This document shows positions 43,992 through 62,709 of a stretch of DNA of 64,000 bases, piece by piece. The DNA lies in the IMG/VR virus record IMGVR_UViG_3300032006_002011, positions 1-64,000 of that record; one strand, 5' to 3'. This DNA is from a virus. Numbering within the stretch: the first letter of the stretch is position 1; the number at the start of each line of letters is the position of its first letter. Made by a program: the position numbers and the translations under genes. Under the pieces are notes generated by a model. That model was not told the DNA's origin. It was given only the letters and a program-made list of their open reading frames with translations, and did no database searches.

Positions 43992-44039
43992 ATATAAGTA
44001 TTTGAGTTTCTTCAATTTCACGAAAGGTTATTAAATCAA

Positions 44040-44450: not shown

Positions 44451-44517
44451 TTATAAAAACTCGGGTAAAAACGAGATAGATGAAACGAAAAGTATTTTTC
44501 AGTTATATTTATGGACA

Positions 44518-44715
44518 ATGAACGATGCTAACTATAAGTTGACTACTGTAAAAGTTTTGTCAGAAAACTACTCCGAATTTAAAATGAAAACCTTAAATTC
44601 AGACATGACTTTGCAAAAATTGGTAAATCGTGCGATTCACTTATATTTGACTGATCCCGATTTCAAGAAACAACTTACCGACACTTCCCCGATAACTGAT
44701 AATAAAAAGTATTGA
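44518..44715 (+). CDS. Small putative ribbon-helix-helix DNA-binding protein
   Basis: KLTTVKV strand followed by two helices (YSEFKMK; TLQKLVNRAIHLYL); start reassigned to ATG 44518 behind ATATTTAT. Confidence 0.55.
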   Translation: MNDANYKLTTVKVLSENYSEFKMKTLNSDMTLQKLVNRAIHLYLTDPDFKKQLTDTSPITDNKKY

Positions 44716-44744
44716 TTGACTTATCTACATAAACATAGTATTGT
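44716..44744 (+). promoter_or_regulatory. sigma70-type promoter, probably giving a leaderless transcript
   Basis: TTGACT-N17-TATTGT, 6 nt before ATG 44751. Confidence 0.65.
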
Positions 44745-44750
44745 TTAGGT

Positions 44751-46010: not shown

Positions 46011-47254
46011 TGAAAGAAAACAAAATATTATTTATAGGACCCGTTGCATCACGAAGTGGTTATGGAGAACATGCGCGTGAAATTGCAGACTATCTATGTA
46101 AGTGGGATGCGGACTTTCTCGTTACAAGTTGGGGAGATAATCCCATGACTGCACTTGAGAATGAAGATGAAATCACCAAGAAAATTACAGAACGAATTGT
46201 GCCGAAGGCAACGAAAGGTTCATATGACGTGTGTATTCACCTTGGTATGCCAACAGAATTTCAAAAAATTGGAAATTACAATATAGGAATTACTGCTGGA
46301 GTGGAAACGGATAGATGCCCAGTTCAGTTTTTAAAGGGATGCAATGATGTTGACTTGGTAATCGTACCTTCGGATTTTTCCAAAAGCACATTCTTGAATA
46401 CAGAGTGTATAGAAGACGGAAAACAAATTAAATGCACAACTCCAATTGAAGTTATATCCGAAACAGTTAACCCAGCATTCCACTACAAGGAGAACGCACA
46501 CTCAGACACATTAAATTCCAAACTAAATGCAATAACCGAAGATTTTTGTTTTATGTTTGTTGGTCAGTGGGTTTCATCTCAAACAGATGACGGGGGTCGG
46601 AAGAATGTAAATTCACTTATATCAACATTCTGTGAGACATTTAAAAACGAATCAAACCCACCTGCGTTAGTGTTGAAAACCAATGGAGTAGATTTCAGTT
46701 TATTTGACGAGGTTAACACACGACAACTCATTGAATCCGTTACCGATAACTTTGAAAATCCTCCTAGCATTTATTTAATACACGGGGAATTAACAGAACA
46801 TGAAATGGCATCATTATACAACCACCCCAAAATTAAATGCCACATCAGTCACACACGGGGAGAAGGATTTGGCAGACCTTTGTTGGAAGCATCGTTAAGT
46901 GGTAAACCCGTTATCGCACCCAAGTGGTCGGGTCACTTAGACTTTCTTCCCAAGAAAAATAACTTGTTGATTCCGGGTAAGATGAAACCAGTCGGAGTAG
47001 TTAATTCACTATTTGCAGATGGTGCTCAATGGTTTGATGTGGACGTTGACCGCAGTCGTGAATTAATGAAAGATGTCTATGTAAATTACGACAAACATCA
47101 GAAACGTGCAATTGCATTGGCAGATGATAATCTTGAAAAGTTTAGTAGAAAGTCAATATTTAATATATATGACAATATATTCAATCAATATATTCCCCCC
47201 AAGAAACGGGAAGTTGAATTGAAATTACCTAACATTAAAAAACTACCGACTTAA
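46010..47254 (+). CDS. Glycosyltransferase family 4 (GT-B)
   Basis: SRSGYG, IVPSDF, RKNV, RGEGFGRPLLEASLSGKPVIAPKWSGHLDF; TAATG overlap. Confidence 0.9.
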   Translation: MKENKILFIGPVASRSGYGEHAREIADYLCKWDADFLVTSWGDNPMTALENEDEITKKITERIVPKATKGSYDVCIHLGMPTEFQKIGNYNIGITAGVETDRCPVQFLKGCNDVDLVIVPSDFSKSTFLNTECIEDGKQIKCTTPIEVISETVNPAFHYKENAHSDTLNSKLNAITEDFCFMFVGQWVSSQTDDGGRKNVNSLISTFCETFKNESNPPALVLKTNGVDFSLFDEVNTRQLIESVTDNFENPPSIYLIHGELTEHEMASLYNHPKIKCHISHTRGEGFGRPLLEASLSGKPVIAPKWSGHLDFLPKKNNLLIPGKMKPVGVVNSLFADGAQWFDVDVDRSRELMKDVYVNYDKHQKRAIALADDNLEKFSRKSIFNIYDNIFNQYIPPKKREVELKLPNIKKLPT

Positions 47255-47255
47255 A

Positions 47256-47978
47256 ATGAGAACTTTTTTTCCTGCATACCGACGTAAAATGGTGGCGGGA
47301 TTTGTTCCCACCCACATATCACGGATACTTCGGGGTCAAATAATTACATTTAGATACCCCGAAGACAGAAACCGAGTACCAACGGGAGGAACAGGTACAG
47401 TACCAAGATTGGTATTTGTTTTAAACAACCGAATCAATCCAAATGGTAACGGACGATTGTTACACGGATTAAATCTGTCTCACATACCTTGGGTGCAATT
47501 TAGAACATTTATTAAAAAACTAATGGTTCAAGATACCTTGACATTAATCAAAAGAAGATACGACATAAAAGCACCTATTAATGAATTGATTGAAAGACCC
47601 AAAACATTCTACTCACAATATATTAAAACATATCTGGGGGATGTTCATTGTTATCGTACATATTTTGTACATTTAATAAAACAACCCAAAATGGGTATGC
47701 TAAATTATGCTTCGATATTTCCACCTGCAAACAAAACTGCACGGGAGTTACTTGTCAGTAAAACCGAAACACTAAAAGATATACAGGAAGAAGTTAGAAT
47801 ATTAAATGATATTATTAACGTAAATACAATGAAATTAAAAGACGATAATTTTAAGCAAATAATAATGTCTCGGTTTGGTAGTGTTGAAAACTTTGTGGAA
47901 GCTGTTCTTGATATCGAAAACTATATAGATGAAACTTCTACAACTGACATGAACGAGATAGACGATTTATTAAAATGA
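47256..47978 (+). CDS. Hypothetical protein, weak resemblance to T4 gp2 DNA end protector
   Basis: GQIITFRY...PRLVFVL...LHGLNLSHIP...HCYRTY pattern. Confidence 0.4.
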   Translation: MRTFFPAYRRKMVAGFVPTHISRILRGQIITFRYPEDRNRVPTGGTGTVPRLVFVLNNRINPNGNGRLLHGLNLSHIPWVQFRTFIKKLMVQDTLTLIKRRYDIKAPINELIERPKTFYSQYIKTYLGDVHCYRTYFVHLIKQPKMGMLNYASIFPPANKTARELLVSKTETLKDIQEEVRILNDIINVNTMKLKDDNFKQIIMSRFGSVENFVEAVLDIENYIDETSTTDMNEIDDLLK

Positions 47979-48649
47979 GCAAATCAATAAGTTATGCAAT
48001 AACCACCCACAACGAAACCGATGTATTGGGCGAGTTGATAAATACTTTACAAGCGTATATAAAAGAAGAGGATGAGATGGTTATACTTGATGATCATTCA
48101 GATAACCCACAAACTTGCAATATACTAAAGAACTTACCAAACGTACATAAATCAAAGTTCACCGGCAATTATGCCGACCACAAAAATAACTTAAACAACA
48201 AATGTAAAAAGGATTATATTTTTCAGTTGGACGGTGATGAAGTTCCCACCGAATTGTTATTATACAATATAAAAGAAATTATAAACTCAAACGATGTTGA
48301 TTTAATTTACTTGCCACGGGAAAACATAATAAACGGCATTGAGGACTTTCATCTTAAAAAGTGGAAATGGTCAAAGGATGACAAAGACCGAATAAACTAC
48401 CCAGACTTTCAAGGAAGGGTTTACAGAAATACAGAGCAGATTAAGTGGGAAAGACCACTACATGAATACATAACAGGTCATGTAACTTGGTCAAAGATCC
48501 CACCAAACTCGGGATTGGATCTTATTCATATAAAGGACATAGAAGTTCAAGTACAAAGCAACAACAGATACGACAACGACTACGATAGAAATGATAACTT
48601 TTCTTATCGTCAATCGGTCACCAAGCAGAAAGATGAAGACGGAAAATGA
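47975..48649 (+). CDS. Glycosyltransferase family 2
   Basis: ISYAITTHNE, ILDDHSD, YADHKN, DYIFQLDGDE, YPDFQGR, LHE. Confidence 0.9.
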   Translation: MSKSISYAITTHNETDVLGELINTLQAYIKEEDEMVILDDHSDNPQTCNILKNLPNVHKSKFTGNYADHKNNLNNKCKKDYIFQLDGDEVPTELLLYNIKEIINSNDVDLIYLPRENIINGIEDFHLKKWKWSKDDKDRINYPDFQGRVYRNTEQIKWERPLHEYITGHVTWSKIPPNSGLDLIHIKDIEVQVQSNNRYDNDYDRNDNFSYRQSVTKQKDEDGK

Positions 48650-50420
48650 AAAGCACCAAGACGATAAACTTGGAGTAGTATGTTGTTATTTCAATCCATG
48701 TAATTATCTTTCGCGATATATAAACTTTATATCATTCTATCAAGGTCTTCGTGAATATCCAAATATCAAGTTGCTTGTTGTAGAGTCTTATTCAGATTCT
48801 TCAAAATATAGAATATCAAAAGTTTGTCCTGACGTAATATCAATAGAATCTTCCGAGATATATTGGCAAAAGGAGCAACTCCTTAATATAGGACTTGAAA
48901 AATTATACAAGGAAGGATATGAATGTATAACTTGTCTCGATGCGGATATAGAATTTTCAAATAAAGATTGGGTAGAAAACTCAATCTCTGCAATACGAGA
49001 ATATAAAATGGTTCAGTTATTTGATAAATGTATCAAAAAACTACCGAATAGTAAAAAACGCATTATCTCAAAATCTACGTGTGCGTATTTTAAGAATCAA
49101 CTTCCTCCTGTCGATAAACTTCTGCAACGACCAGGAGAACCTGGGTTTGCATATGGCTACCACTCCAGTATACTAGAAACTTTTAGATTATACGAAAATG
49201 CCATTATGGGTTCGGGTGATTTCCTGAACTTGTTGGGGTGTATTTATGATGGGAATGATTTGTCTGTCATGAAATCAGATAGATTTTTTGCAGGAGGCAA
49301 TGAAGAATTTTTCAATGATTATATAGAGTGGGTATCTCGTAATGATTTGGAAATCGGTGAAATTAACACCGCAAACAATACAATCTATGTTGAATACCAC
49401 GGCGAATATATGAAACGTTCTTATGTAGGACGAGAAGTAATATTAAAAAGAACCAACTACAATCCCAAGGAAGATGTAACTTTATTAAAAACGGGATTGT
49501 ATAAAATCAACAACCAATCTTTGAGACAACAAATTTTATCCTACTTTCAGTCTAGAGATGAAGATGGTTTTATCGGAGTGGTTAACCGAAATCGTCCGTT
49601 TAGAAATAAGATATTAAAATTAATACTAAACAACAACCCCGATTATGATATAACTCAAACAGAACTTGATAATTTGAATGAACTTGAATACAAAGAACCA
49701 CCTGAACTTCATTGTGATATTCCCAAACTTTCAAACGACACAAATCGTGTGGTGATTGCATCAAAGACAACCGAGGAATTTTTCGCGGTCAAAAGAATCT
49801 CAGCTGACGAACACATTGTGGTAGATAAATCAAAATACCCACAGAGAAATACAATCAAATCAACAAATGGTTCAGGAGACGCAGAAACATACTTAAGTTT
49901 CATAATCAAAAATTATGAAATTTTACCCGAGTGTTGTGTGTTTATATCAGATAATCTTAAAAGAAAAACAAGAGAGTATCAACCTTTGGTCAACAAAGTC
50001 TTGAAAACAAACCCGACCCCCGATGACAAATTAATCTATATAGTTGATTCATACAACACAATATATGTTGATAAAACTATTCATATAAAGGGTACTATAA
50101 AAGTAACGCATAAAACCAAGCAATATGTAAACTCATTGATGCCGAGTAATTACAACTATACAAACTGGGTGGAACACTTTATATCCAAGGAGAAGTTTCA
50201 AGTACTAAATAGGAGTGTAAACAAACTCACACAGACAATGATACTGAAAGATGGAGTCCAATTAAAATATAATCCGAATAATTCATTCTTAATAAGTGGT
50301 GATAAAATTAGAAACCGAGAAAAGTCATTTTATGAAACACTATACTCTCGGTTGGTTGGAGAACACAATACAGAGGAATCGTTATATATAAACAGAAGTT
50401 GGGATATTATATTCAAATGA
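48633..50420 (+). CDS. GT-A-like protein with an extra C-terminal domain (DUF3431-like)
   Basis: CYFNP, WQKEQLLNIG, LDADIEF, VQLF, GSGD; C-terminal ETYLSFIIKNYEILP...F. Confidence 0.55.
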   Translation: MKTENEKHQDDKLGVVCCYFNPCNYLSRYINFISFYQGLREYPNIKLLVVESYSDSSKYRISKVCPDVISIESSEIYWQKEQLLNIGLEKLYKEGYECITCLDADIEFSNKDWVENSISAIREYKMVQLFDKCIKKLPNSKKRIISKSTCAYFKNQLPPVDKLLQRPGEPGFAYGYHSSILETFRLYENAIMGSGDFLNLLGCIYDGNDLSVMKSDRFFAGGNEEFFNDYIEWVSRNDLEIGEINTANNTIYVEYHGEYMKRSYVGREVILKRTNYNPKEDVTLLKTGLYKINNQSLRQQILSYFQSRDEDGFIGVVNRNRPFRNKILKLILNNNPDYDITQTELDNLNELEYKEPPELHCDIPKLSNDTNRVVIASKTTEEFFAVKRISADEHIVVDKSKYPQRNTIKSTNGSGDAETYLSFIIKNYEILPECCVFISDNLKRKTREYQPLVNKVLKTNPTPDDKLIYIVDSYNTIYVDKTIHIKGTIKVTHKTKQYVNSLMPSNYNYTNWVEHFISKEKFQVLNRSVNKLTQTMILKDGVQLKYNPNNSFLISGDKIRNREKSFYETLYSRLVGEHNTEESLYINRSWDIIFK

Positions 50421-51277
50421 TAATCATATCAATACATCTGTTTCCACACGAAATAAAAAGATTTAGGCGTATCGTCCAAACTTTTAAAAAGTCCGTTCCG
50501 TATATAGAAGACACCTCCCAAATAAAAATGTTAGTTACTCTAAATACGAACTCTAAGTTAATTGACTGGGGTACTGAATCTGATGATATAGTATGTGCGG
50601 AGTTTGAAGAAATATGCAAAACAATTCCGTTTGCAGTTTGTTGGGAAATAAAAAACGAACCCACTTATTTGGGAGTTAACGAACACAGAAGAAATTCTAT
50701 ACACACATCCTTGCTTGGTGATACAATAATATTTCTAGACACAGATTTATACTTTGAAGAGCGACTTCTTGCACACCAAATAAATGCAATAAGTTTAATT
50801 AAAACATTAAATGAGTATTATGTAATATCCCCACAGATATTAAGATTATGGGATGCTACGTGGGATTGTATAGTTAATAAAAAATATCTAGATAAACCAC
50901 TTGATTATTACAAAACCGCAACTCCAATAGATCATGTAAACGTAGACCACGGAAGTGTTGGGGTACTTCCCATTCAAACTTTCAAATGGGGTGGTGGTTG
51001 GTTCAATGCAATTTCCGCAAACCTTTTAAAATACATTGGACTACCCGAGTCATTTGTGGGATACGGACCCGATGACACATTTGTCATGGAGTGTTGTAAG
51101 ATAATGAAAAAGCATAACAAAGACATACAACAATATGTGCTTTCAAATATGATAGTAATGGAAGATCAAGAACCCATTGAAAGTTCAATAAAACTTAAAA
51201 ACAACACTCTCAACTTTAGAGAAGAATGTAACAAACACTTTTTATCCGAGATTTCCAAGTTTACACAAAAACTATAA
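50417..51277 (+). CDS. GT-A-like glycosyltransferase
   Basis: IFLDTD DxD motif, GGGWFNAIS, FVGYGPDDTF; ATGA overlap. Confidence 0.65.
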   Translation: MIIISIHLFPHEIKRFRRIVQTFKKSVPYIEDTSQIKMLVTLNTNSKLIDWGTESDDIVCAEFEEICKTIPFAVCWEIKNEPTYLGVNEHRRNSIHTSLLGDTIIFLDTDLYFEERLLAHQINAISLIKTLNEYYVISPQILRLWDATWDCIVNKKYLDKPLDYYKTATPIDHVNVDHGSVGVLPIQTFKWGGGWFNAISANLLKYIGLPESFVGYGPDDTFVMECCKIMKKHNKDIQQYVLSNMIVMEDQEPIESSIKLKNNTLNFREECNKHFLSEISKFTQKL

Positions 51278-51290
51278 AAATTTCATATAT

Positions 51291-52103
51291 ATGGATATGA
51301 AACTGCGACATATTCTAACCTCAGGAACCATCCTTGCACTGGCACTTATGAACCAGGGTTGCTTTAATGTAACATGGGGATTAAAAGAACAACGAACAGA
51401 AATTGCAGGAGAAATTGCAAGAAAAGAAGGTGAACTAGACCGGCACACAAGAGCATTCGTTTCGGGAACTGTAGACGCCCTGTCCCTTTCAGAAGAGAAA
51501 TCCAAGGAAGATTTGGTGGCACTTAATCTCGCACAAAAGGCACAAGAAATAATCGGACTACCACAACCGGGTGATAAAATTCATGTTGAAGACGTAATCA
51601 ATCAAAACGAACTTGCTTTGGAAAATCTATCCGACAGAGACACCGATGTCATTAAACTTAGCAGACGAAAGGAAATGCTCGGCCACGACTTAAAGGATAC
51701 CGAAGAAAAACTTATTAGTTTGGGAGAACTCAAAGCACAAGAAGAAAAAGACGGATTCTTTTCCTCATTGTGGGGGTGGTTAACGGGAACATTCGGCTTA
51801 CTCGGAGCAATCGCAGTTTGCATAATAGCAGGTCCTGCATTGCTCCCACTCATAACCCAATTATTCGGTTGGTTGGTAGGTAAGATACCAGGACTAATTA
51901 CATGGTTGGGAATTACAAGTAGTAGGATGACAAGTAATATCATTAAGGGTGTCCACGATGCCAAAGAAAAAATTCGTGCGGTGGAAGATGACAAGAAATT
52001 CAGTAAGAACGAAGTTTTGGGAATATTCGGTTCATCTCTTGGAAACTCAACCAATGACACCGACAAAAATGTCATTGCGAGAATAAAACGCAGATTCAAG
52101 TAA
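51291..52103 (+). CDS. Putative lipoprotein/membrane protein with a coiled coil
   Basis: Signal-like N-terminus ending QGC, helical middle, hydrophobic segment FFSSLWGW...ITWLG. Confidence 0.6.
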   Translation: MDMKLRHILTSGTILALALMNQGCFNVTWGLKEQRTEIAGEIARKEGELDRHTRAFVSGTVDALSLSEEKSKEDLVALNLAQKAQEIIGLPQPGDKIHVEDVINQNELALENLSDRDTDVIKLSRRKEMLGHDLKDTEEKLISLGELKAQEEKDGFFSSLWGWLTGTFGLLGAIAVCIIAGPALLPLITQLFGWLVGKIPGLITWLGITSSRMTSNIIKGVHDAKEKIRAVEDDKKFSKNEVLGIFGSSLGNSTNDTDKNVIARIKRRFK

Positions 52104-52173
52104 TAAACCCCCACCTTTGTTATATTTATAACAAAAGGTTATACCGCATTTTAATTTATGGAGATTGCGTTAT

Positions 52174-53049
52174 ATGAAGATTGGAGTTGTTGGTAATGGG
52201 TTCGTGGGTCATGCAATGACATTGCTTAGACCACACGTTGAAGTATTGGTATGGGACATAGTTGCCGAAAAGAGAGATCCAAAGACATTGGATATTGAAA
52301 CATTTGTCGAAGAGTCCGAAATTATTTTCGTTGCAGTTCCTACACCGATGAATTCAGATGGTAGTTGCAACCTAAACATTGTTCGTGACGTATGCGAAGA
52401 AATACAAGAAATAGATGACACCAAGTATATAGTGTTACGTTCTACAGTTCCTCCTGGAACAAGTGAAGAACTTGACGTGGCATTCATGCCGGAATTCCTC
52501 ACGGAAAAGAATTGGAAAACCGATTTTAAAAATTGCGATCAATGGATACTTGGTTCAACCGATCCGTTCTTGTATGAAAAAATGAAACGTATGTTTGAAC
52601 TTGCCCACGACAATGGTAATGGTTCGGTAATAAACAAGAGCGTTATTCAGTGCAAACCAAGTGAAGCAGAAATGATAAAGTATTTAAAGAACGTATTTCT
52701 TAGTGTTAAGGTTGGGTTCTTTAACGAACTTGAGTCAATATGCTCAGAGTTGGACATTAATTATGAAAATGTTCGTTGTATCGCAACCCAAGATAAACGA
52801 ATTGGAAGTGGTCATACTAAAGTTCCTGGACATGATGGACACCGAGGTTTCGGTGGAACGTGTTTCCCAAAGGACACCAATGCACTCGCAAGTTTTGCAG
52901 AAGACAATATGATACCAACTCCGATTCTTGATGCGGTTATCAAAAGAAATGAAGAACTTGATCGTCCAGAAAAAGATTGGATGGCAGATAAAGGTCGAGC
53001 AGTCTCCGCAGAAATCAAATCAAAGAAATCCAAAAAAGAAACCGAGTAA
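52174..53049 (+). CDS. UDP-glucose/GDP-mannose dehydrogenase family (short form lacking the C-terminal domain)
   Basis: GVVGNGFVG, VAVPTP, RSTVPPGT, PEFL, EAEMIKY..N, GFGGTCFPKD. Confidence 0.9.
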   Translation: MKIGVVGNGFVGHAMTLLRPHVEVLVWDIVAEKRDPKTLDIETFVEESEIIFVAVPTPMNSDGSCNLNIVRDVCEEIQEIDDTKYIVLRSTVPPGTSEELDVAFMPEFLTEKNWKTDFKNCDQWILGSTDPFLYEKMKRMFELAHDNGNGSVINKSVIQCKPSEAEMIKYLKNVFLSVKVGFFNELESICSELDINYENVRCIATQDKRIGSGHTKVPGHDGHRGFGGTCFPKDTNALASFAEDNMIPTPILDAVIKRNEELDRPEKDWMADKGRAVSAEIKSKKSKKETE

Positions 53050-53052
53050 GAT

Positions 53053-54006
53053 ATGGACTACTACGATTTCTTTAATGGTGATGCGGATGGTATCATAAGT
53101 CTACATCAATACAGAACGCACTATCCAAAGAACTCCAAGTTGTTTACTGGAGTCAAACGTGACGTGAAGTTACTTAGACATTGTACCGACATAAAAGACT
53201 CCATGTTTACTGTGTTTGATATATCCTTGCTTTCCAATGCAGACTATATAAAACCAATATTGGATAATGGAAATCATGTCAAGTGGTTTGACCACCATGA
53301 ACCAGGTGAAACGGAACTGGGAGATAACTTTAGCATCAAGGTGGATGCAGACCCCAATTGTTGCACAAACATATTGGTTGATGAGTATTTGAATGGTTTG
53401 TATCGTCCGTGGACAATATGTGGAATATATGGAGATAACCTCCACGAACAAGCAGACAAATTTAATCCATGCTTCAACAAAGAGTCAATGAACAAATTAA
53501 AGGAAGTTGGTGAAACATTAAACTACAATGGATATGGAAACGAGGAACTTGACTTGACTGTTCACCCCAAAGACGTATATCTTGACCTGAAGGATTATGA
53601 ATCTCCGTTCGAATACAGAAAGAAGTCGGAAACCTATCACAAGATTCACACACAGATGACCTCAGACGAAGCAGAATTAAGTTCTTCGGAAATTATATAC
53701 GATACGGAAGTTGGAATGGTTATCATCTTACCCAACACAAGAGCATCAATAAGATATTCGGGAATTTATAGCAATCAACAAACAACAGATAATCCAGACA
53801 AAGCATTTGCAATACTTACTTCAGTAGACGGAGGGAACTACCGCATCAGCATTCGTTCACCAAAAACAAATCCATACGGAGCAAGCAAACTGGCATTGCA
53901 GTTTCCAACGGGGGGTGGGCGTGAGAAAGCTGCGGGAATAAACGAACTCCCAAAGTCAGAACTAATAAATTTTATTTCAAAGTTTGAAGAAGTATACGGA
54001 AAATGA
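53053..54006 (+). CDS. DHH-family phosphoesterase
   Basis: NGDADG, FDIS, FDHH and DHHA1-like SIR...GGGREKAAG. Confidence 0.85.
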   Translation: MDYYDFFNGDADGIISLHQYRTHYPKNSKLFTGVKRDVKLLRHCTDIKDSMFTVFDISLLSNADYIKPILDNGNHVKWFDHHEPGETELGDNFSIKVDADPNCCTNILVDEYLNGLYRPWTICGIYGDNLHEQADKFNPCFNKESMNKLKEVGETLNYNGYGNEELDLTVHPKDVYLDLKDYESPFEYRKKSETYHKIHTQMTSDEAELSSSEIIYDTEVGMVIILPNTRASIRYSGIYSNQQTTDNPDKAFAILTSVDGGNYRISIRSPKTNPYGASKLALQFPTGGGREKAAGINELPKSELINFISKFEEVYGK

Positions 54007-54632
54007 TTGTATCTCATAAGCACAAGTTCATATTTTTCAAACCGTGGAAAGTCGGTGGTAATAGTGTTGAACATAATTTGATTGAGCATTGTGGTGATAA
54101 AGACTTAATAGACACAACACACAGAAATCCCAAAGACACCCTTGACATAATAGGAAAACGAAAGTTCAACAAGTACTTTAAGTTTACAATCGCAAGGAAT
54201 CCTTGGGATAGAATGGTTTCTTATTTTTGGTGGCAAGACGGGGGTTTGGTAGGAAAGAATCACAGAAAGAACATTAACAAACTTGTAAAGATGCAGTTTA
54301 ACGGATATCAGTTCAAAGAACAATTTGCTCGTTGGATTGGAAACTATTCCCACTTCAACCAACCTTTCTATTTTGATGACAAAGGAAATCCAATAATGGA
54401 CCACTATATGAAGTTTGAGAACCTGGACAACGACTATAAGAAAATTTGCAAGAAGCTAAAGTTACCATACAAGAGTCTTAAAAAAATAGGAACATTTCCA
54501 TTCAAGAAAAAGAATGAAGAATATTGGAAATATTACAACTATGAGTCGGGTGCGGTAATTGCACAACGACACAAAAAAACAATAGAAATGTTTAATTATA
54601 CGTGCGGTCCCGCACCAAAGAAAGATATTTAA
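54003..54632 (+). CDS. Sulfotransferase (Sulfotransfer_2 family)
   Basis: HKFIFFKPWKVGGNS (5'-PSB) and FTIARNPWDRMVSYF (3'-PB), KFENL. Confidence 0.85.
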   Translation: MIVSHKHKFIFFKPWKVGGNSVEHNLIEHCGDKDLIDTTHRNPKDTLDIIGKRKFNKYFKFTIARNPWDRMVSYFWWQDGGLVGKNHRKNINKLVKMQFNGYQFKEQFARWIGNYSHFNQPFYFDDKGNPIMDHYMKFENLDNDYKKICKKLKLPYKSLKKIGTFPFKKKNEEYWKYYNYESGAVIAQRHKKTIEMFNYTCGPAPKKDI

Positions 54633-54636
54633 TTAT

Positions 54637-54888
54637 ATGAAGTTATCAGATGTCAAAATAGAAAACGATCAAATAGTTCTGAAATTTGATTATCGTATGT
54701 ATGGCATTGGTGATGATATTACCATGATGCACGATTTGAAATTGTGGTCAAACCCAAAGAAAGTTTGTGAAGACTTGGTAAATACCGCAAATGGTATTAT
54801 AGATATATTAGAACTTGATATGGAAATTAAATCGGTAGAAACAAAGTCCGACATTTCTTCACAAGACTTGTCCGACAGATGGGGATAA
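54637..54888 (+). CDS. Hypothetical protein
   Basis: 83-aa ORF packed in the operon. Confidence 0.6.
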   Translation: MKLSDVKIENDQIVLKFDYRMYGIGDDITMMHDLKLWSNPKKVCEDLVNTANGIIDILELDMEIKSVETKSDISSQDLSDRWG

Positions 54889-54892
54889 AATT

Positions 54893-55264
54893 ATGAGTGA
54901 ACAAGACGAAAGCATTAGACCTTGGGGAAATTACGAAATTCTCCTAGACGCAGATTACTGCAAAGTTAAACGCATCTTTGTAAAACCCGGACAACGACTT
55001 AGTTATCAGTACCACCACAAACGACAAGAAGCATGGACGGTCGTTAGTGGAGTTGCAAGAATAACCTTGGATGACGTTACCGAAGATTACAAACCAGGTG
55101 AAACTGTTTTGATTCCACTTGGTGCAAAGCATCGCATGGCAAACCCAAGTGATGACGAAATGATGATTTTAATTGAAGTTCAAACAGGAACTTATTTTGG
55201 TGAGGACGATATTGTGCGTGTTCAAGATGACTATGATCGTCCAGAAAAACACGAATCGGAGTAA
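54893..55264 (+). CDS. Mannose-6-phosphate isomerase type II cupin domain
   Basis: RPWG, VKPGQRLSYQYHHKRQEAW, HR.AN, IEVQTGTYFGEDDIVR.QDDY. Confidence 0.92.
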   Translation: MSEQDESIRPWGNYEILLDADYCKVKRIFVKPGQRLSYQYHHKRQEAWTVVSGVARITLDDVTEDYKPGETVLIPLGAKHRMANPSDDEMMILIEVQTGTYFGEDDIVRVQDDYDRPEKHESE

Positions 55265-55268
55265 CCTT

Positions 55269-55676
55269 ATGAAAACAGTAGCAGTTAGTGGATACTTTGA
55301 CCCAATTCATGTGGGACACTTGGAATACCTTGAGTTGGCAAAAGAACTTGGTGATCGTCTTGTTGTTATCGTAAACAACAATCATCAATGTGTTCTTAAA
55401 AAAGGCAAACCATTTATGGATGAAGCAGACCGAGTAAAAATCGTAGAAGCACTCGGAATCGTTGATGAGGCATTTCTCAGCATTGATAAGGACAAAAGTG
55501 TATGTGCTTCACTCGATGCAATTAAACCAGACATCTTTGCAAATGGTGGAGACAGAAGTGTGGGTGAAGTTCCAGAAAGTGTTGTTTGTAAGAAACATGG
55601 AATAGAAATGGTTGATGGTCTCGGCGACAAAATCAGAAGTTCTTCTGACCTGACTGGACTAAAAGAAAAGAAGTAA
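55269..55676 (+). CDS. Cytidylyltransferase-family nucleotidyltransferase (TagD/RfaE-II-like)
   Basis: SGYFDPIHVGH (HxGH), KKGKPFM, FANGGDR, KIRSSS; start ATG 55269. Confidence 0.9.
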   Translation: MKTVAVSGYFDPIHVGHLEYLELAKELGDRLVVIVNNNHQCVLKKGKPFMDEADRVKIVEALGIVDEAFLSIDKDKSVCASLDAIKPDIFANGGDRSVGEVPESVVCKKHGIEMVDGLGDKIRSSSDLTGLKEKK

Positions 55677-55695
55677 GGTTTGTCTACTTATAGTT

Positions 55696-56601
55696 GTGGA
55701 CAAAGTACTTATAACAGGTGGTGCGGGATTTGTCGGAACTGCACTAATTAAAAAACTTATACGCAAGTATAAGAACATTGAAATTGTTTCCATTGACAAT
55801 TATAGTAGTGGTTCGGTGAACAATCATGTAAAGAGCAAGAAAGTAACTTATCTTGATAAGGATACTCAAAACTTAGTTCCCAAAAAATTCGGCATGAACG
55901 ATACCAAGATGGACATTGCCGATGCATTTGAACCAGATGTCGTTTTTCATTTCGGTGAGTTCTCAAGAATCGTAACGAGTTTCGATTCTTTTGATAATTG
56001 TTGGGACTACAATATGCAAGGCACAAAAATGGTTCTTGATTATTGTGTCGCAAAAAAAGCAAAGTTGGTTTATAGTGCAAGTTCAAGTAAGTTCGGAAAC
56101 GATGGGAAGGACGAAAACCTTTCTCCATATGCTTGGATGAAAGCAAAGATGGTTGAACTAATTAAAAACTATTCAGAGTGGTTTGACTTAAAATATGAAA
56201 TCACCTATTTCTATAATGCGTATGGACCAGGACAAATAAGAACTGGGGATTATGCAACCGTCATCGGAATCTTTGAAGAGCAATACTCCAAGGGAGAACC
56301 ACTTACAGTTGTAGAACCAGGTGAACAATCAAGAGACTTTACCCACATCAGTGATATTGTACGGGGAGTTATACTGGCCGCAGAGAAAGGAAGGCAAGAT
56401 GAGTATCCCCTCGGCACGGCAATTTCACATAAAATTATTGATGTGGCAAAAATGTTTAACCATGAATATGTTATGATTCCAGAAAGGAGAGGTGAGAGAT
56501 TTTACGGAAAAGCAATTCCCTCACTAACTTATCAGCATCTTGGTTGGGTAGCAAAAATTAAGTTGGAAGATTATATTTCAAAAATCATATGTAAAAAGTA
56601 A
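55696..56601 (+). CDS. NAD-dependent nucleotide-sugar epimerase/dehydratase
   Basis: ITGGAGFVG, YSASSS, SPYAWMK (YxxxK), FYNAYGP, RDFTHISD. Confidence 0.92.
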   Translation: MDKVLITGGAGFVGTALIKKLIRKYKNIEIVSIDNYSSGSVNNHVKSKKVTYLDKDTQNLVPKKFGMNDTKMDIADAFEPDVVFHFGEFSRIVTSFDSFDNCWDYNMQGTKMVLDYCVAKKAKLVYSASSSKFGNDGKDENLSPYAWMKAKMVELIKNYSEWFDLKYEITYFYNAYGPGQIRTGDYATVIGIFEEQYSKGEPLTVVEPGEQSRDFTHISDIVRGVILAAEKGRQDEYPLGTAISHKIIDVAKMFNHEYVMIPERRGERFYGKAIPSLTYQHLGWVAKIKLEDYISKIICKK

Positions 56602-56630
56602 TTGACTTATTTTAGTCAATGGGCTATAAT
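56602..56630 (+). promoter_or_regulatory. sigma70 promoter of the five-gene operon, with an inverted repeat over the -35 box
   Basis: TTGACT-N17-TATAAT; ATTGACT-N6-AGTCAAT palindrome. Confidence 0.75.
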
Positions 56631-56640
56631 ATATGATACA

Positions 56641-58287
56641 ATGTGCGGTATATTAGGCGGTAACCAATTCAACGATATAGAACAGGTCAAAACTGGTCTG
56701 GCATCTATCATGCATCGTGGTACGGACGGAAACGTAGTGTTCCACTTCAAAGAAAATGACTTCTATATGTGTCATAACAGGTTGTCTATTCAAGACTTAT
56801 CAGAGTCAGCAAATCAACCGCTCATATCAGAAGATGAAAAATTTATTTTGGCATTTAACGGGGAGATGTGGAAACCATTCTTTAGGAAGTTCAATTCCAA
56901 ACTAAGAAAAAAATACAACTTCAAGACTGAGCGGAGTGATTCGGAGTTGTTACTTTATTACTTAATAGATAATCGTGACAACATATTGAAGTCAATGAAG
57001 AAACTTGACGGAATGTTTTGTTTTGCTTTTTATGACATAGAAAGAAACGAACTTACGTTGGGCAGAGATTTCATCGGAAGGCTTCCTTTATACTATGCGT
57101 TTGAAAAAAACAAAATAGTTTTCTCAAGTGAAGTAAAGGGAATACAATCGGCAAAACCAGAATATAAGTTTTTTAATGTAGACAGAAGTCGTAAACCACC
57201 CGAGGGACAGGAAGAGAAAATAAAGGTTGTAGAACCAGGAACAATTGTAACGGTTTCCAAAAATTTCTTTGGTACTATCAGTTGCGAAATCAAACGATGG
57301 AACGATTTCAAACCCGAGTTCAACCCAGAGAACCCAACCCTATATACTCGTTCCGAGACAGACTTAACCCTACTTGAAGGGGAGGACTTAGGAATTGACT
57401 ATTACGCATCCGAGTTCAGAAAACGGTTGGAAAAAGCAGTTGACGATGAATTGATTAGTGACACCCCAATCTGTACGATTTTAAGTGGTGGCATTGATAG
57501 TACAATCATCACATATCTTCTAAAAAAGAAGAACCCAGACATTGAAGCATTCGTGGTAAACGTAACGTCAAACAGAAAGCAGACACTAAAAGATGACTTA
57601 TATTATGCCAAGATAGCTGCCAACGAATTGGGAGTTAGGTTACACGAAGTTAATGTCAGCAAAGACGATATTGAAAACAATCTAAAAGAAAGCATCTGGG
57701 CATCCGAGACTCATAAGTGGACACAGGTATCTCCTGCGGTTGCTCAACTATTCTTGTCGTGGGAAATCCGTGACAAAGGATATAAGGTTGTATTTGGTGG
57801 AGAGGGAGCAGATGAAATCTTTGCAAGTTATGGAGACGTCAAGAGATTCTGTTGGCCCGACCCACTTGCTTGGCATCAAAAAAGAGTCAACCTCATCAAC
57901 AACCTTCACAAGAATAATCTCATCAGAACCAACAAGGCAATGATGTATGGTGGCAAGGTAGAATTGAGAACTCCGTTTCTAAACAAGGAAGTTATTGATT
58001 TCGGTTTAAGGATTCCGACCAGATATAGAGATGAAGCAGATGGTAAGGGAAACATAATGAAGTATGTTTTGCGGAAAGCATTTGAGGGAGAGATTTCAGA
58101 AGAACTTCTCTGGAGACCCAAAAAGACTTTTCAACAAGGATGTCACACGGATTACTTAAAGAAGGAGCAGGAGACCATAGATAAATACTTTAATGAATTG
58201 TTCGTTGAAAACAAAGTTCCTGCCAAATATATTGGTAGGAGTATTGGTCATGTATCTGCTAGAATCAAAGTAAAGGAGATGGCATGA
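56641..58287 (+). CDS. asnB: Asparagine synthetase B-like glutamine amidotransferase
   Basis: Start reassigned to MCGILGG (Ntn Cys); [40 protein letters not shown]. Confidence 0.9.
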
Positions 58288-59093
58288 ACATATTACTAAA
58301 AGACAAATCAGACCTCGGTGAAGTAGACAAGTTTATCCCCAATGCCCATGTTCTTGGAGCAATGCAAAAAGCAGACGGCATTCCAACCCAAGACATTAAA
58401 GTAATATCCACCAAGTTCAGCAAGGTGGGCAAGACCACCCTAGACAAATACCCAAACCTTGAGTGGGTTGTTCACAGAGGTCATGGGGTTGATTCGGTCA
58501 ACCTAAAGTTATGCAAACAACATAACGTGGGAGTCGTTGCAACAAGCCCAAACACAAACGGATGTGCTTACTGGATAAAGGATAAACTGATTGAGGGTGA
58601 TTGCGTTATATTCGGCAACGGAGTCATTTCCAAAAAAGTTCAAGGTATCGTTGAAGAAAATTTTGAAATTATAAATTCAAAGACGGATAGTGCAACAATT
58701 AAACAGATAGTGTCACTTCCCAATATCAAAAACATAATCACAACAGTACCGTTGAATGATTCCACAAAAAATATGTTTGATGCAGAATTGTTTGAAAACT
58801 GCAACTCGGTGAACTTTGTATCCATCAGTCGTGCGGAATGCCATGACAATTTAGCCTTGCTTTCTCTGATAAACGGTGGTAATATAGCATCCGCACATAT
58901 TGATACATTGGGAACAGAGTTAAGGGAAGAACTAATCGACACCGAAAAAGTTAAATACTACAATCACACCTCATGGGATTTCCTTGGGGAAAAGAACGAT
59001 CATAAAAAGTTGAGTGAGATTATCAACGATTGTTTGAATGACAAAGTAAGCAATGCAATTTTAGAAAGGCAAGAAAACAAATGGTTTCAGTAA
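58284..59093 (+). CDS. D-isomer-specific 2-hydroxyacid dehydrogenase-like protein (compact)
   Basis: PNLEWV...[40 protein letters not shown]. Confidence 0.75.
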
Positions 59094-60289
59094 AAGAAAA
59101 GAAGACACAGAAAGTCAAAGTCAAGGATGACATTTCAGATGAAGTTAAGGATGCGTTTAGGAAACACGCAAAGTTTTATCAGGAATACGATGTTCCACCA
59201 CAGTGGAAAGACCAACCCATTGCGTGTAAAGAACCCAACCTAGATCCATTTAAGAAAATTAATTGGAAGAACTTATGGGAAGCAGACCGAAAGGGAAGGT
59301 TGTTTTGGCACGAAGATGAAAACAATGAAATTGTATGGAGTTACATTTGTGCGGAAGCAAAGTCGAGTCGTGGTATCAAGGATATAGCAGAAGATGTCGT
59401 GGCAACCATCAAGGCAGGTGATTTGCAAATCTCACGATTCGCATATGCACCCGAATGGAAGCAAGAGTTAATTGATGACATTGAATCCAAACGTGAATTG
59501 GAAAACGACTTCTTCAACACCAAGAGAGACTTATTTTTTACAGACGTCAACATGGAACTTCAACAAGACAAAGATGTCTGCGAGGCACTAAATGCAACTT
59601 GGTTGAGTAGCAAGGTAACCGCAGTTGGATCGGAAGTCCGTGGTATTTGGTATGAAGGCGAATTGAAGCAACCCGGTGTATCCAAGTACGAAGACATCAA
59701 AATTAAAAAGATGAAACTATCTTCTATCAACAAAAAGGAATGTGCGGAACTTGTTCAAGAAATCAAAGATTACAAGGAAGCAGTTAATCCTTGGAGTTAT
59801 GATGGAATCAACGGAAACTACGGAGGACCAGAAAAGACTTGGTACACCATTGAAGTAGTTCCAATTAATCCCAATAGTGAAACTGACTATACGATTCTTG
59901 AGAAACTTCCCAAACTTGCCAAGATTGTAAACGAAATAACTTCAGTTGACAAATGCACTTGGTTGGTTATCACAAGAGTAGAACCAAAGAAGGGAGTCAT
60001 TCAACGGCATACCGACATTGGTCACGATAGTTGGGACTACCAAACCAAAAATGGTCCTAAACTTGGTCGTTCTCTGCGAGTACACTTCCCAATTCAAGTT
60101 GACGAAGATTGTGTATTCACTCAAGTTGGACTTGACGGAGAAACCGAAGACTTCCGTTTAAAGACGGGGGAATATTACTATATGGATAAACGCAAACCTC
60201 ACTGGGTTGTAAACAACTCCGAAGATTATAGGTTTCATGTAATCATGGATTTGGAGTGTGAACAAAAACACTTGGATGCTCTCCTTTAA
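59081..60289 (+). CDS. Unassigned (possibly GNAT-like) N-domain fused to an aspartyl/asparaginyl beta-hydroxylase-type 2OG-Fe(II) dioxygenase
   Basis: IQRHTD, RVHFPI, GEYYYMD...PHWVVN...RFHVIMD (HxD...H...R). Confidence 0.75.
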
Positions 60290-61157
60290 TTTCAATACTC
60301 CCACCGAAGAATATTCTTGTGATGGTCGTTCTGTTTATGTAAAACGGGATGATTTGCTCAACGGAGATATGGACTTACCTCCTTGGGCAAAGATGGAAGG
60401 CATCCGCAGGGTACTTGAAAGTGGTGACCTAAACAAAGATATTCCAATTATACACTTATCAGTTCGTGTAAGTTATAGTGGTTGGGCATTGGCATATATA
60501 GGTCGTGAACTTGGGTTTGACATTAAGATTGCTTATCCAGATAGTAAGGACTACCCAAAAGAAGCACTTAAAAAGATAGAGAGTTTCGGTGCGGAAACGG
60601 TGCCAATTAAACCCAACCTACTTAGCATTGTGCTGAACCGAGTTAAGGCAATGGCAAAAGAAGAAGGATTTCAAATGATGCCGTATGCGTTTAATCACCC
60701 TGCTTATATTGATTATTTCCAAACAAGGATGCAAGATATATTAAAAGAAACAGATTTTGACCACCTTGTTATTAGTGGTGGTAGTGGGGTTACGGGTTCG
60801 GGTTTAATCCGTGGGTTTATGGACTTTGATAGTTTTTTCCCCAAGAAGAAAGTCCACATTATTTCTACTGCATCGGAGAATTCCATTGCAAACGTATTAA
60901 AGAAGTGGAACGCATATCACAGAAGCAACATCCGAATTCACGAAACCGAACATGATTTCTTTGATGACATGGATTGGTGCGAAGTTCCATTTCCGTGCAA
61001 CGGAAATTGGGATAAGAAAGCATGGATATGGTTACAAGAAAATGCTCGCAATTTAGACGGAAGCGTACTATTCTATAATCTTGGTGGACATAGTGCATCA
61101 TATTTTTGGAAAACACAAAATGAAGAAATACTTTTACGAGAAGAACAACCTAACTGA
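60276..61157 (+). CDS. PLP-dependent enzyme, fold type II (Trp synthase beta / ACC deaminase / cysteine synthase-like)
   Basis: VYVKRDDL...AK (PLP Lys), SYSGWALAY, SGGSGVTGSGL phosphate loop, DKKAW. Confidence 0.8.
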   Translation: MLSFNFNTPTEEYSCDGRSVYVKRDDLLNGDMDLPPWAKMEGIRRVLESGDLNKDIPIIHLSVRVSYSGWALAYIGRELGFDIKIAYPDSKDYPKEALKKIESFGAETVPIKPNLLSIVLNRVKAMAKEEGFQMMPYAFNHPAYIDYFQTRMQDILKETDFDHLVISGGSGVTGSGLIRGFMDFDSFFPKKKVHIISTASENSIANVLKKWNAYHRSNIRIHETEHDFFDDMDWCEVPFPCNGNWDKKAWIWLQENARNLDGSVLFYNLGGHSASYFWKTQNEEILLREEQPN

Positions 61158-62709
61158 GTGTAAGGTCAATATCACATTTCATGAACTTCTTCAGAAGAAC
61201 GGAGAAGAACTTGAACAATGGATAGACGAACTTAGAAACTATATCGTTGAGACATGGGATAAGCAGGGGTTACCACCAAGAACAGGTAAAAACGAAAAAG
61301 ACATCATCGCTCAGTTCAATAAACTTCAACGATACGACACCAAGAAGTTTCTACATAAAGATGAAATGGATGGAACTATGACCATCGTAAAGAACTTCAA
61401 TAAGTTTGCAACTGTCATTGACCAATTCTTTCCAACGATGCTCAAGACCAAAATTGGTTCAAGCAAACACACGTCTTGGAGTGTATATGATTGCTTTGCC
61501 AATCCAGAGAAACGAGAAAGTTTTCATACTTGCATGAGACGAACGATACGCAGAGATTCCTTTTTTGCTCATGGAAAAACGATAGGAAAAAACGATACCT
61601 CAGTTCCGTGTCCAACTGAAGATGGTGAGGAGTGGGTTAGGAACTTTGTCAAGGAAAAGGAACTTCACCCCGAGAACGACTTTTGGATTATTGAATTGTT
61701 CACCGAAAAGAAGTTTGACTCGTATGAAGAAAGTAGTTTGATGTTGACTGCAAAGCAAATCAAGAAATTGTACAAAGAAGGTTTACTCGAAACAAACAAC
61801 ATTAGAAATCTTGAACGAACCGCAAACTTCGGTGACGATATGGAAAACCTAAACGACACCATCATTGAAGATGAGAAGGAAGTTAATTTTAAATTCAGCA
61901 TTCGTTATTACGACAAGACTTCTCGTATTTTTCCTTCAGCAATGGAAGCATTCAAACTTGGGTTGAGTCAACCGGCGGTAAACTTTCCTCCTCTGACTGC
62001 AAAATATATATACCAGAAGTACACGGATCACGTGGACAACAAAGATGATATTACCATATATGATCCAAGTTCTGGGTGGGGTGGAAGAATTCTCGGTGCT
62101 ATGAGCATTGATGATAGGCAGATTCATTATGTTGGAACTGACCCAAATACCGACAACTATATTGATGAAATTGGAAAGTCTCGTTACGAATATGTTGCCG
62201 ACTTCTTCAATGAAAAGACCAATGGTGGTAATCCGTTCTTTGGCCATCGTAATACATATGATGTTTATCAAGACGGAAGTGAGGACATTCACAAGAACCC
62301 ACGATTTCAGAAATACAAAGGTAAACTTGATTTGGTTTTTACAAGTCCACCATATTTTAATCGTGAACAATACTCAGCTGACGAATCTCAGAGTTTCAAA
62401 AAGTTTCCTGAGTATGAAGATTGGAGAGACAACTTTCTTCGTCCCACGTTGAAAACCGCATCGGAATATCTAAAGCATGATCGTTATCTATTGTGGAACA
62501 TTGCGGATATCGGTGATGGGGATGGATTCATGCCACTTGAGCAAGATAGCAAAGATATTCTTGCGGAATACGGACTTGAGTATGTTGAAACTCTTAAGAT
62601 GCTTATGACAACAATGAGAGGAGTCAAGGCAGAACAGGTAAAGAATTGTTGCAAGATAAACGGAGAACTACAGAAGTACGAACCTATATTTGTGTTCTAC
62701 AAGAAGTGA
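61120..62709 (+). CDS. SAM-dependent amino-DNA methyltransferase-like protein (N4-C/N6-A type)
   Basis: YDPSSGWGGRILGA (motif I), YVGTDPN, DLVFTSPPYF (motif IV); start ATG 61120. Confidence 0.8.
   Translation: MKKYFYEKNNLTECKVNITFHELLQKNGEELEQWIDELRNYIVETWDKQGLPPRTGKNEKDIIAQFNKLQRYDTKKFLHKDEMDGTMTIVKNFNKFATVIDQFFPTMLKTKIGSSKHTSWSVYDCFANPEKRESFHTCMRRTIRRDSFFAHGKTIGKNDTSVPCPTEDGEEWVRNFVKEKELHPENDFWIIELFTEKKFDSYEESSLMLTAKQIKKLYKEGLLETNNIRNLERTANFGDDMENLNDTIIEDEKEVNFKFSIRYYDKTSRIFPSAMEAFKLGLSQPAVNFPPLTAKYIYQKYTDHVDNKDDITIYDPSSGWGGRILGAMSIDDRQIHYVGTDPNTDNYIDEIGKSRYEYVADFFNEKTNGGNPFFGHRNTYDVYQDGSEDIHKNPRFQKYKGKLDLVFTSPPYFNREQYSADESQSFKKFPEYEDWRDNFLRPTLKTASEYLKHDRYLLWNIADIGDGDGFMPLEQDSKDILAEYGLEYVETLKMLMTTMRGVKAEQVKNCCKINGELQKYEPIFVFYKK

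Follow-up and report, generated by a model that had tools for sequence, protein, structure and literature searches.

The window analysed here is a stretch of 64,000 nucleotides of viral DNA (positions 1 to 64,000 of IMG/VR record IMGVR_UViG_3300032006_002011), the genes of which were read in silico. Five overlapping genes on the + strand span positions 56641-62709 and encode an AsnB-type amidotransferase, a 2-hydroxyacid dehydrogenase, a 2-oxoglutarate (2OG)-Fe(II) oxygenase, a pyridoxal phosphate (PLP) enzyme and a methyltransferase-fold protein. Together they probably (probability about 0.6) represent a version, independent of thymidylate synthase, of a widespread and uncharacterised phage module for hypermodifying a nucleobase, either in the viral DNA or in its nucleotide precursor. 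An earlier reading of the window, referred to here as the original prediction, had described five open reading frames (ORFs) with overlaps of 4, 13, 14 and 38 nt, and these were found as claimed, the start of the PLP gene being taken at 60276. The genes are listed below with the length of each protein in amino acids (aa) and the basis of the assignment.

56641..58287, + strand: AsnB-type glutamine-dependent amidotransferase / amide synthetase, 548 aa (Pfam, 1ct9, motifs)
58284..59093, + strand: compact D-isomer 2-hydroxyacid dehydrogenase, 269 aa (two Pfam domains, alignment A6)
59081..60289, + strand: two-domain protein, 402 aa, with a predicted GNAT-fold N-domain (about 20-196) and a 2OG-Fe(II) oxygenase domain (about 201-395) (Pfam, motifs, AlphaFold2 model)
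60276..61157, + strand: gp52-like fold-II PLP enzyme (PHROG 7093), 293 aa from ATG (PALP, phrog_7093, gp52 profile)
61120..62709, + strand: amino-methyltransferase-fold protein, 529 aa, with an N-domain (1 to about 280) and a class-I methyltransferase domain (motifs, fold)

The catalytic motifs that were checked for each family are intact in all five proteins, and the family names first given to them (AsnB, compact 2-hydroxyacid dehydrogenase, 2OG oxygenase, fold-II PLP enzyme and SPPY methyltransferase) were borne out by Pfam, motif and PHROG comparisons, the last of them at the level of motifs and fold.

The five proteins

The longest ORF of the PLP enzyme begins with a GTG codon at 60258, and relatives start at the Met of MLSFNF, which corresponds to 60276. 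The protein matches PALP (49 bits, 5.6e-13) and phrog_7093 (3e-25), and comparison of its profile with that of M6 gp52 using hhalign gave a full-length match (probability 99.9, E value 2.2e-31, 259 columns). Residue K45 aligns with the Schiff-base lysine of gp52, K36, and is invariant in alignment A1, and the C-terminal signature PFPCN..WD.KAW.WL..FWN.G is common to the two proteins. The only relatives found in cultured phages by tblastn were the ‘threonine dehydratases’ of the M6/YuA group (24% identity, 93% cover). The gp52 gene of M6 is located between those of an amino acid:DNA transferase and a radical S-adenosylmethionine (SAM) isomerase in the 5-NedU cluster, and its product decarboxylates amino-acid-thymine conjugates in polymeric DNA in vitro; gp52 and ViI gp226 are the only members of the family that have been assayed (PMC8989533). 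The window enzyme is therefore placed, from its sequence, in the gp52 family, in which decarboxylation of a base-linked amino acid is the reaction of gp52 itself, and the link to phage thymidine hypermodification that had been drawn from its PLP fold was upheld at the level of this family.

The methyltransferase-fold protein carries motif I as DPSSGWGGR followed by motif IV as FTSPPYF, both invariant in alignment A3. It had no Pfam hit of its own, and PF01555 is precomputed for many of its homologues. The C-terminal part matches PHROG 498 ‘DNA methyltransferase’ and is 27-31% identical to the ‘DNA methyltransferase’ of Twort-like phages, and more than 2000 full-length relatives (clusters) were found. 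Foldseek and VIA returned generic class-I methyltransferase neighbours only, with no match that places the N-domain, and a PDB sequence search matched nothing with either this protein or the oxygenase. A second methyltransferase of 405 aa, from a related PF01555-type subfamily, is encoded 11.5 kb downstream and outside the window at G000:C1:74237-75454, where G000 is the window's own record (G001, G002 and G003 are the IMG/VR records of loci L004, L007 and L002). Its identity is 43% with a methyltransferase encoded next to PolB in the distant relative G004 and 29%, over 214 residues, with the window methyltransferase. A tandem second copy of the 529-aa gene (70-74% identical) was also observed right after the first, at about 11587-13161 in L001, L005, L006, L008 and L009.

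The PLP and methyltransferase families also meet within a single protein. The PLP protein of an alternative cassette carried by close relatives of the window matches the middle of gp1, annotated ‘DNA modification methylase’, of Erythrobacter phage R6L (vB_EliS_R6L; L083:4921-7341; 807 aa) at 36% identity and 95% cover. Along R6L gp1 a ParB-like domain comes first, then methyltransferase motif I, then a gp52-like PLP domain and last a single (S/C)PPY motif, and its motif IV shares the extended form F-x-S/C-PPY-x3-E-x-YS-x-D with the window methyltransferase. By these motifs, R6L gp1 has a PLP domain inserted inside a methyltransferase of the window protein's subfamily. The same region was matched in two other cultured phages, Erythrobacter phage ZS04 and Microcystis phage Mae-JY30, and in all three phages the methyltransferase-PLP pair could be tested.

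The oxygenase is of the AspH / proline-hydroxylase 2OG-Fe(II) type (Asp_Arg_Hydrox, 36 bits, 7e-9), with the iron triad H310-x-D312...H374 and the 2OG-binding R384 invariant in alignment A2. In the AlphaFold2 model (mean predicted local distance difference test score 82.7) the nearest folds to the C-domain (201-395) are proline 3-hydroxylase 1e5r (Z 14.9, root-mean-square deviation 2.7 over 156 residues) and AspH (Z 12.9). The extra N-domain that the original prediction had noticed is confirmed, and the model of residues 20-196 predicts a GNAT fold, with matches to GNAT acetyltransferases at Z 11-12 (2pc1 and 8zt3, Z 12.0, 143-150 residues) that hold at the fold level only; no clear instance of the acyl-CoA motif Q/R-x-x-G-x-G/A was seen in alignment A2. 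The dehydrogenase has both domains of its family above the cut-offs (2-Hacid_dh_C, PF02826, 36.6 bits; 2-Hacid_dh, PF00389, 32.9 bits), its glycine motif is the variant G-N-G-x-I-S, and R65-x-H67-G68-x-D70, G111-x-G113, R183 and H228 are invariant in alignment A6, which contains no invariant Glu. Both families are narrow and metagenome-only, with 87 clusters for the GNAT-oxygenase and 54 for the dehydrogenase.

The AsnB protein matches Asn_synthase (179 bits, 2.4e-52), GATase_7 (1.5e-25) and E. coli AsnB 1ct9 (2.5e-47). Its nucleophile Cys2 directly follows the initial Met (MCGILG, residues 1-6) and the PP-loop SGGIDS is at 282, features of an intact class II glutamine amidotransferase of the asparagine synthetase B type. 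In jumbo-phage contigs the AsnB partner has no glutaminase domain. Searches of cultured phages by tblastn with the window AsnB, with the synthetase-only AsnB-like protein of L100 and with the window dehydrogenase found no module-bearing phage, and blastn of the 6.1-kb cassette against cultured phages gave no match. The protein atlas returned solely unnamed viral clusters with scores below 0.9.

Co-occurrence and partner switching across viral loci

Genomic contexts were taken from IMG/VR loci. A search with the PLP profile yielded 80 viral loci, against 3 with a single PLP sequence, and these have GC contents of 27-46% and lie on contigs of up to 375 kb. AsnB was found in 54 of the 80, a thymidylate-synthase-like gene in 39, the dehydrogenase in 24 and the oxygenase in 17, and the thymidylate-synthase-like gene never occurred together with the dehydrogenase or the oxygenase. 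The counts for the 38 loci of 12 kb or more (long loci) were as follows.

Methyltransferase of the window family: 37/38 long loci
AsnB: 29/38 long loci
Thymidylate-synthase-like gene: 25/38 long loci
PolB, clamp or clamp loader: 18/38 long loci
Dehydrogenase: 13/38 long loci
Homologues of the window's sugar genes: 2/38 long loci, own clade only
M6-type kinase, transferase or radical SAM enzyme: 0/38 long loci

Every long locus carried either the thymidylate-synthase-like gene (25) or the dehydrogenase (13), and never both. When the ORFs of 23 divergent loci (dehydrogenase type or window's clade) were clustered, the sole recurring families other than those of replication were the PLP enzyme (23), the dehydrogenase (22), the methyltransferase (21), AsnB (16) and the oxygenase (15), which are exactly the five of the window. 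The five genes are co-conserved as a set, with their order shuffled between lineages, and this was the outcome of the synteny search by which the original prediction was to be checked. In loci of the L162 type a methyltransferase homologue of 314 aa, 37% identical to window residues 283-529, is encoded between the dehydrogenase and AsnB genes. In the complete 177-kb genome of G004 one methyltransferase gene lies between those of the clamp and the clamp loader, and AsnB (32%) and PLP-enzyme (45%) homologues with overlapping gene ends lie between thymidylate-synthase-like and dUTPase-like genes, just upstream of the second related methyltransferase and PolB.

In a maximum-likelihood tree of the PLP enzymes (midpoint root; partners called within +/-7 kb only, and rows from truncated contigs given the label ‘none’) the rows partnered by the thymidylate-synthase-like gene and by the dehydrogenase are intermixed. 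At least 4 changes of the dehydrogenase label on well-supported branches are required, and a mixed clade is the sister group (98/90) of the window's clade. In the thymidylate-synthase-like enzyme of the sister modules the catalytic Cys is kept, with Asp at the position of ThyA N177 (dCMP type) and Arg at that of D169, although the alignment is of low identity. Because of these two residues the partner is predicted to be neither a normal ThyA nor of the D169N 5-hydroxy-dCMP synthase type. The protein (L052:689-1384, with homologues in L098, L100 and L104) is 228-235 aa long and keeps Pro-Cys146 and Arg166-Ser167.

Genomic surroundings of the cassette

The window belongs to one 77.6-kb viral contig in which a terminal repeat is absent, and the proteins encoded in it include a baseplate wedge protein, PhoH and giant structural proteins. 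Its source is an uncultured marine T4-like myophage, since relatives of the contig encode PolB polymerase and T4-type clamp and clamp-loader proteins. At least 0.83 of the sampled words of the stretch with the five genes were present in four marine plankton/seawater metagenome runs belonging to two studies, and no RNA runs were listed among the sequencing runs in which it occurs. With 38.5-40% GC the cassette is in line with the remainder of the contig and thus gives no hint of a recent foreign origin. The window's contig as a whole has 38.5% GC, compared with 32.9% in its close relative G001 (170 kb), the proteins of which are 84-95% identical. G001, G002 and G003, which are T4-like contigs of 130-170 kb, are labelled ‘provirus’ by IMG/VR, and the sugar-gene block described below may have been taken for host DNA.

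The five genes form the 3' end of a block of 19 co-directional genes (44751-62709). Two further features precede them.

56602..56630, + strand: sigma70-like promoter candidate, TTGACT-N17-TATAAT (direct reading)
44751..56601, + strand: 14 co-directional glycosyltransferase and sugar-nucleotide genes (Pfam)

The promoter that the original prediction had placed before the operon is present as a candidate in the only intergenic gap of the block (39 nt), and its -35 element sits inside a 6-bp inverted repeat (TTGACT...AGTCAA). It is the top match, at 11 of 12 positions, within the 19.5 kb from 44000 to 63500, but it is not exceptional by count, as 3 sites of at least 11/12 occur in the 64-kb window against 4 +/- 2 in Markov-1 simulations. 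Of four relatives with the same cassette, L003 and L008 keep the site and L002 and L059 do not. The position of the site suggests early transcription of the five genes.

The sugar block encodes two GT4 and two GT2 glycosyltransferases (one with DUF3431), a UDP-glucose dehydrogenase, a DHH-like protein, a sulfotransferase, a cupin, a cytidylyltransferase and an NAD epimerase, and it is tied to the module in the window's own clade only. The UDP-glucose dehydrogenase homologue (52165-53049, 294 aa) has the N-terminal and central domains, the C-terminal UDP-binding domain being unmatched, and GT4a, GT4b and GT2a are conserved (33-39% identity) in distant relatives, where they lie beside the replication genes. 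The block could serve DNA glycosylation, as in RB69 and DLP3, or glycosylation of virion proteins, and it may be part of one larger DNA-modification island.

In close relatives, with methyltransferases 84-90% identical to that of the window, the epimerase and methyltransferase genes are constant and the DNA between them is variable. This interval holds the same four-gene cassette in L002, L003, L008 and L059; a distant GNAT-oxygenase homologue, a 156-aa protein of unknown function and a distant PLP homologue in L001, L004-L007 and L011; and no genes in L009 and L010. On the other side, in the region 62710-72246 (minus strand, partly beyond the window), three unknown proteins of paralogue-like size (543, 520 and 517 aa) are encoded by genes converging on the methyltransferase gene. 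They differ strongly between close relatives (31-86% identity), and the first, the sole one scanned, had no PHROG or Pfam match except to bVLRF1 of Pfam below the cut-off.

Interpretation as a probable DNA hypermodification module

The window's enzyme set most likely represents an undescribed variant within phage DNA hypermodification, and its five genes very probably serve a single pathway directed at a nucleobase. This reading is favoured because the PLP enzyme is a homologue of gp52, a PLP domain is fused with a methyltransferase in R6L, the families co-occur across viral loci and their genes lie in a replication-gene context. The set shares features with four systems and departs from each of them. 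Like the thymidine hypermodification pathways of M6 and ViI (PMC8989533), it is phage-encoded, would tailor a base-appended group by several enzymes, lies near nucleotide-metabolism and replication genes and includes a gp52-family PLP enzyme with an aligned Schiff-base lysine. Unlike them, it has no dUMP hydroxymethylase, 5-hmdU DNA kinase, amino acid:DNA transferase or radical SAM isomerase, and the partners of its PLP enzyme are AsnB, the 2-hydroxyacid dehydrogenase, the GNAT-2OG oxygenase and the amino-methyltransferase-fold protein. No homologues of M6 gp51, gp53, gp54 or gp55 were found in the 80 PLP loci, and no significant match to the 5-hmdU DNA kinase or amino acid:DNA transferase (PF18748, PF18724) in G000-G004, records that are partly incomplete; a 14-bit match to the amino acid:DNA transferase inside the GT2/DUF3431 gene of G001 was below the cut-off and was rejected. 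Thymidylate synthase homologues (PF00303) were not found in G000-G003 and G005-G009, which are 13-84% complete.

The nearest precedent for the AsnB protein is CmoY, an AsnB homologue of Synechococcus phage S-B43 that amidates the carboxylate of 5-carboxymethylcytosine with glycine in DNA; a second CmoY cluster, in which a glutaminase domain is present, was untested in that paper (PMC12783734). The CmoA/CmoX/CmoY system of S-B43 resembles the window set in pairing a methyltransferase-fold enzyme with an asparagine synthetase homologue, which in S-B43 forms an amide on a DNA base. It differs in that the window set lacks CmoA, has a methyltransferase with the SPPY amino-transferase motif (FTSPPYF) rather than an SPPC C5-type motif with R350, and adds the PLP enzyme, the dehydrogenase and the oxygenase. 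No match to CmoA (Cx-SAM synthase, TIGR00740) was found in G000-G004, and tblastn with the AsnB proteins gave no link to Synechococcus phages or to S-B43 CmoY at the thresholds used. In TET/JBP-type 5-methylpyrimidine dioxygenase pathways, a post-replicative alternative to the thymidylate synthase homologue, a 2OG oxygenase likewise occurs beside a methyltransferase in a phage DNA-modification neighbourhood (PMC8256090, PMC13229309). The window oxygenase is instead of the AspH / proline-hydroxylase type joined to a predicted GNAT fold, its methyltransferase is not a C5 enzyme, and a kinase, transferase or ParB partner is lacking from the window. The fourth system is the module of thymidylate-synthase-like enzyme, AsnB, PLP enzyme and methyltransferase found in uncultured marine and freshwater phages, in which the PLP enzyme (41-50% identity), AsnB (32%) and the methyltransferase (43-47%) are shared. 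Both versions occur in the same broad phage groups, and the window has the dehydrogenase and GNAT-oxygenase in place of the thymidylate-synthase-like gene. Installation of a reactive handle by thymidylate synthase homologues or, post-replicatively, by dioxygenases is a known alternative (PMC13326640, PMC13229309). The original prediction did not recognise the combination as a described pathway, and literature searches found no published description of the window's enzyme set or of its thymidylate-synthase-like version.

In the proposed scheme the methyltransferase-fold enzyme, the PLP enzyme and AsnB would form a conserved back end. The first two would act on the same base, and AsnB would convert the carboxylate of the appended group to a carboxamide with ammonia from glutamine. 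The dehydrogenase and the GNAT-oxygenase would form a front end that makes or tailors the reactive handle and is interchangeable with a dCMP-type thymidylate-synthase-like enzyme. A specific five-step route, with each enzyme in its usual reaction class, can be written with low confidence and is unlikely to be correct in full. An amino-acid-like side chain, possibly the aminocarboxypropyl part of SAM, would be put on the base; its beta carbon would be hydroxylated by the oxygenase; the PLP enzyme would remove the amino group by beta-elimination to leave a 2-oxo acid, or would decarboxylate as gp52 does; the dehydrogenase would turn the 2-oxo acid into a 2-hydroxy acid by reduction; and amidation of the carboxylate by AsnB would complete the route. 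Also unlikely is a version in which the SPPY methyltransferase-fold enzyme, instead of plain methylation, adds the 3-amino-3-carboxypropyl group of SAM, or another amino-acid-like group, to the exocyclic amine of a DNA base after replication, and the PLP enzyme, GNAT-oxygenase, dehydrogenase and AsnB sculpt a hydroxylated amide. If true, DNA would here be tailored by a logic like that of diphthamide, and the modification would be the first of the amino-acid type to arise from neither a 5-hydroxymethyl nor a 5-carboxymethyl pyrimidine.

Several points weigh against the assignment to DNA hypermodification. For a single carboxylate, amidation would be in conflict with decarboxylation, unless the group has two. 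The PLP enzyme is just 24-28% identical to gp52, so its reaction type may differ. The methyltransferase is kept at 84-90% identity in relatives without the cassette (L009, L010) or with another (L001, L004-L007, L011), and because it persists in L009 and L010 it can work without the other four and has a function of its own. None of the known initiating enzymes was found in the genome of the window or in close relatives, the records of which are 13-84% complete, and every genome carrying the window's cassette is incomplete. The cassette directly follows the UDP-glucose dehydrogenase, epimerase and related genes, which could be a source of a uronic-acid carboxylate. The product nucleoside, the substrate and the target base are all putative. 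What was supported of the original prediction is the DNA-modification interpretation, for which co-conservation, the gp52 family, the setting among PolB, clamp and clamp-loader genes and the CmoY precedent speak; its order of methylation, hydroxylation, oxidation, amidation and PLP tailoring is hypothetical, and what was not supported is the ‘self-contained’ operon, as the genes end a 19-gene block, a second related methyltransferase lies 11.5 kb downstream and sister modules swap in a thymidylate-synthase-like enzyme.

The sugar genes give rise to a different reading, in which the four enzymes serve to tailor a nucleotide sugar that the upstream genes provide (UDP-glucuronate, for instance, would be amidated and an amino-acid substituent added or trimmed, the glycan going on virion proteins or DNA) and the methyltransferase is an unrelated neighbour. 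The 14 upstream genes are on the same strand with the UDP-glucose dehydrogenase and epimerase nearest, and the cassette is present, swapped or missing at a single site between epimerase and methyltransferase, as is often so where glycan loci carry tailoring genes. DNA-glycosylation clusters are known from T4-like phages, and in them thymidylate synthase homologues, GT-B glycosyltransferases and nucleoside diphosphate (NDP)-sugar genes build arabinosylated 5-hydroxycytosine (PMC13326640). However, outside the window's clade the enzyme set is found among replication genes, and the conserved linkage to sugar-nucleotide genes expected of WbpS-like uronic-acid amidating cassettes was seen in just 2 of the 38 long loci; the sole characterised relative of the PLP enzyme acts on DNA, and elsewhere the module has methyltransferase genes embedded in it or fused to it. 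A sugar-tailoring cassette, at one stage the first reading, was demoted by these comparative data and is considered unlikely.

The remaining alternatives concern the substrate. Auxiliary metabolic genes are plentiful in marine phages, and the four enzymes might produce a free amino or keto acid for the infected cell, or transform one, by asparagine, hydroxy-aspartate or serine-type chemistry, next to an ordinary DNA methylase. Amino-acid metabolism commonly uses all four families, the nearest folds to the oxygenase are free-proline hydroxylases, and the PLP profile also matches serine dehydratase and ACC deaminase. The narrowness of the metagenome-only dehydrogenase and oxygenase families, the tight linkage to the methyltransferase, the alternation with a thymidylate-synthase-like gene, the gp52-specific signature and the PLP domain of the same family inside the R6L methyltransferase argue against this, and make it very unlikely. 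A module acting on tRNA or other RNA would agree with the nearest solved folds of the methyltransferase, which are the tRNA m2G enzymes Trm11, TrmN and Trm14 (Z 14-15) and count against a DNA target, and chemistry of the aminocarboxypropyl and amide kind is well established in the modification of tRNA and proteins. An RNA target is nonetheless highly improbable, as the partner in the sister modules is a dCMP-type thymidylate synthase homologue acting on deoxynucleotides, gp52 acts on DNA, the R6L fusion has a ParB-type DNA-binding domain and the genes adjoin those of PolB, the clamp and the clamp loader.

Hypermodification of the viral DNA is accordingly retained as the preferred reading, and the likely benefit of the module to the phage is protection against host nucleases. 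Phage DNA hypermodifications defeat restriction enzymes and CRISPR nucleases, and they are a source of enzymes for DNA chemistry and sequencing. To our knowledge, all described pathways begin with a hydroxymethyl, hydroxyl or carboxymethyl pyrimidine, made through a thymidylate synthase homologue, a TET/JBP oxygenase or CmoX, and then employ a kinase/transferase pair, a glycosyltransferase or an amide ligase. None of these known starters was detected in the window module, yet two of its tailoring families are common with the known pathways. The methyltransferase family comprises more than 2000 clusters, and the stretch with the five genes is present in marine metagenomes of two studies. The alternation of front ends, thymidylate-synthase-like enzyme in one version and dehydrogenase with oxygenase in the other, leads to the testable hypothesis that there are two routes to one kind of modified base, and six kilobases of DNA would suffice to examine it in E. 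coli.

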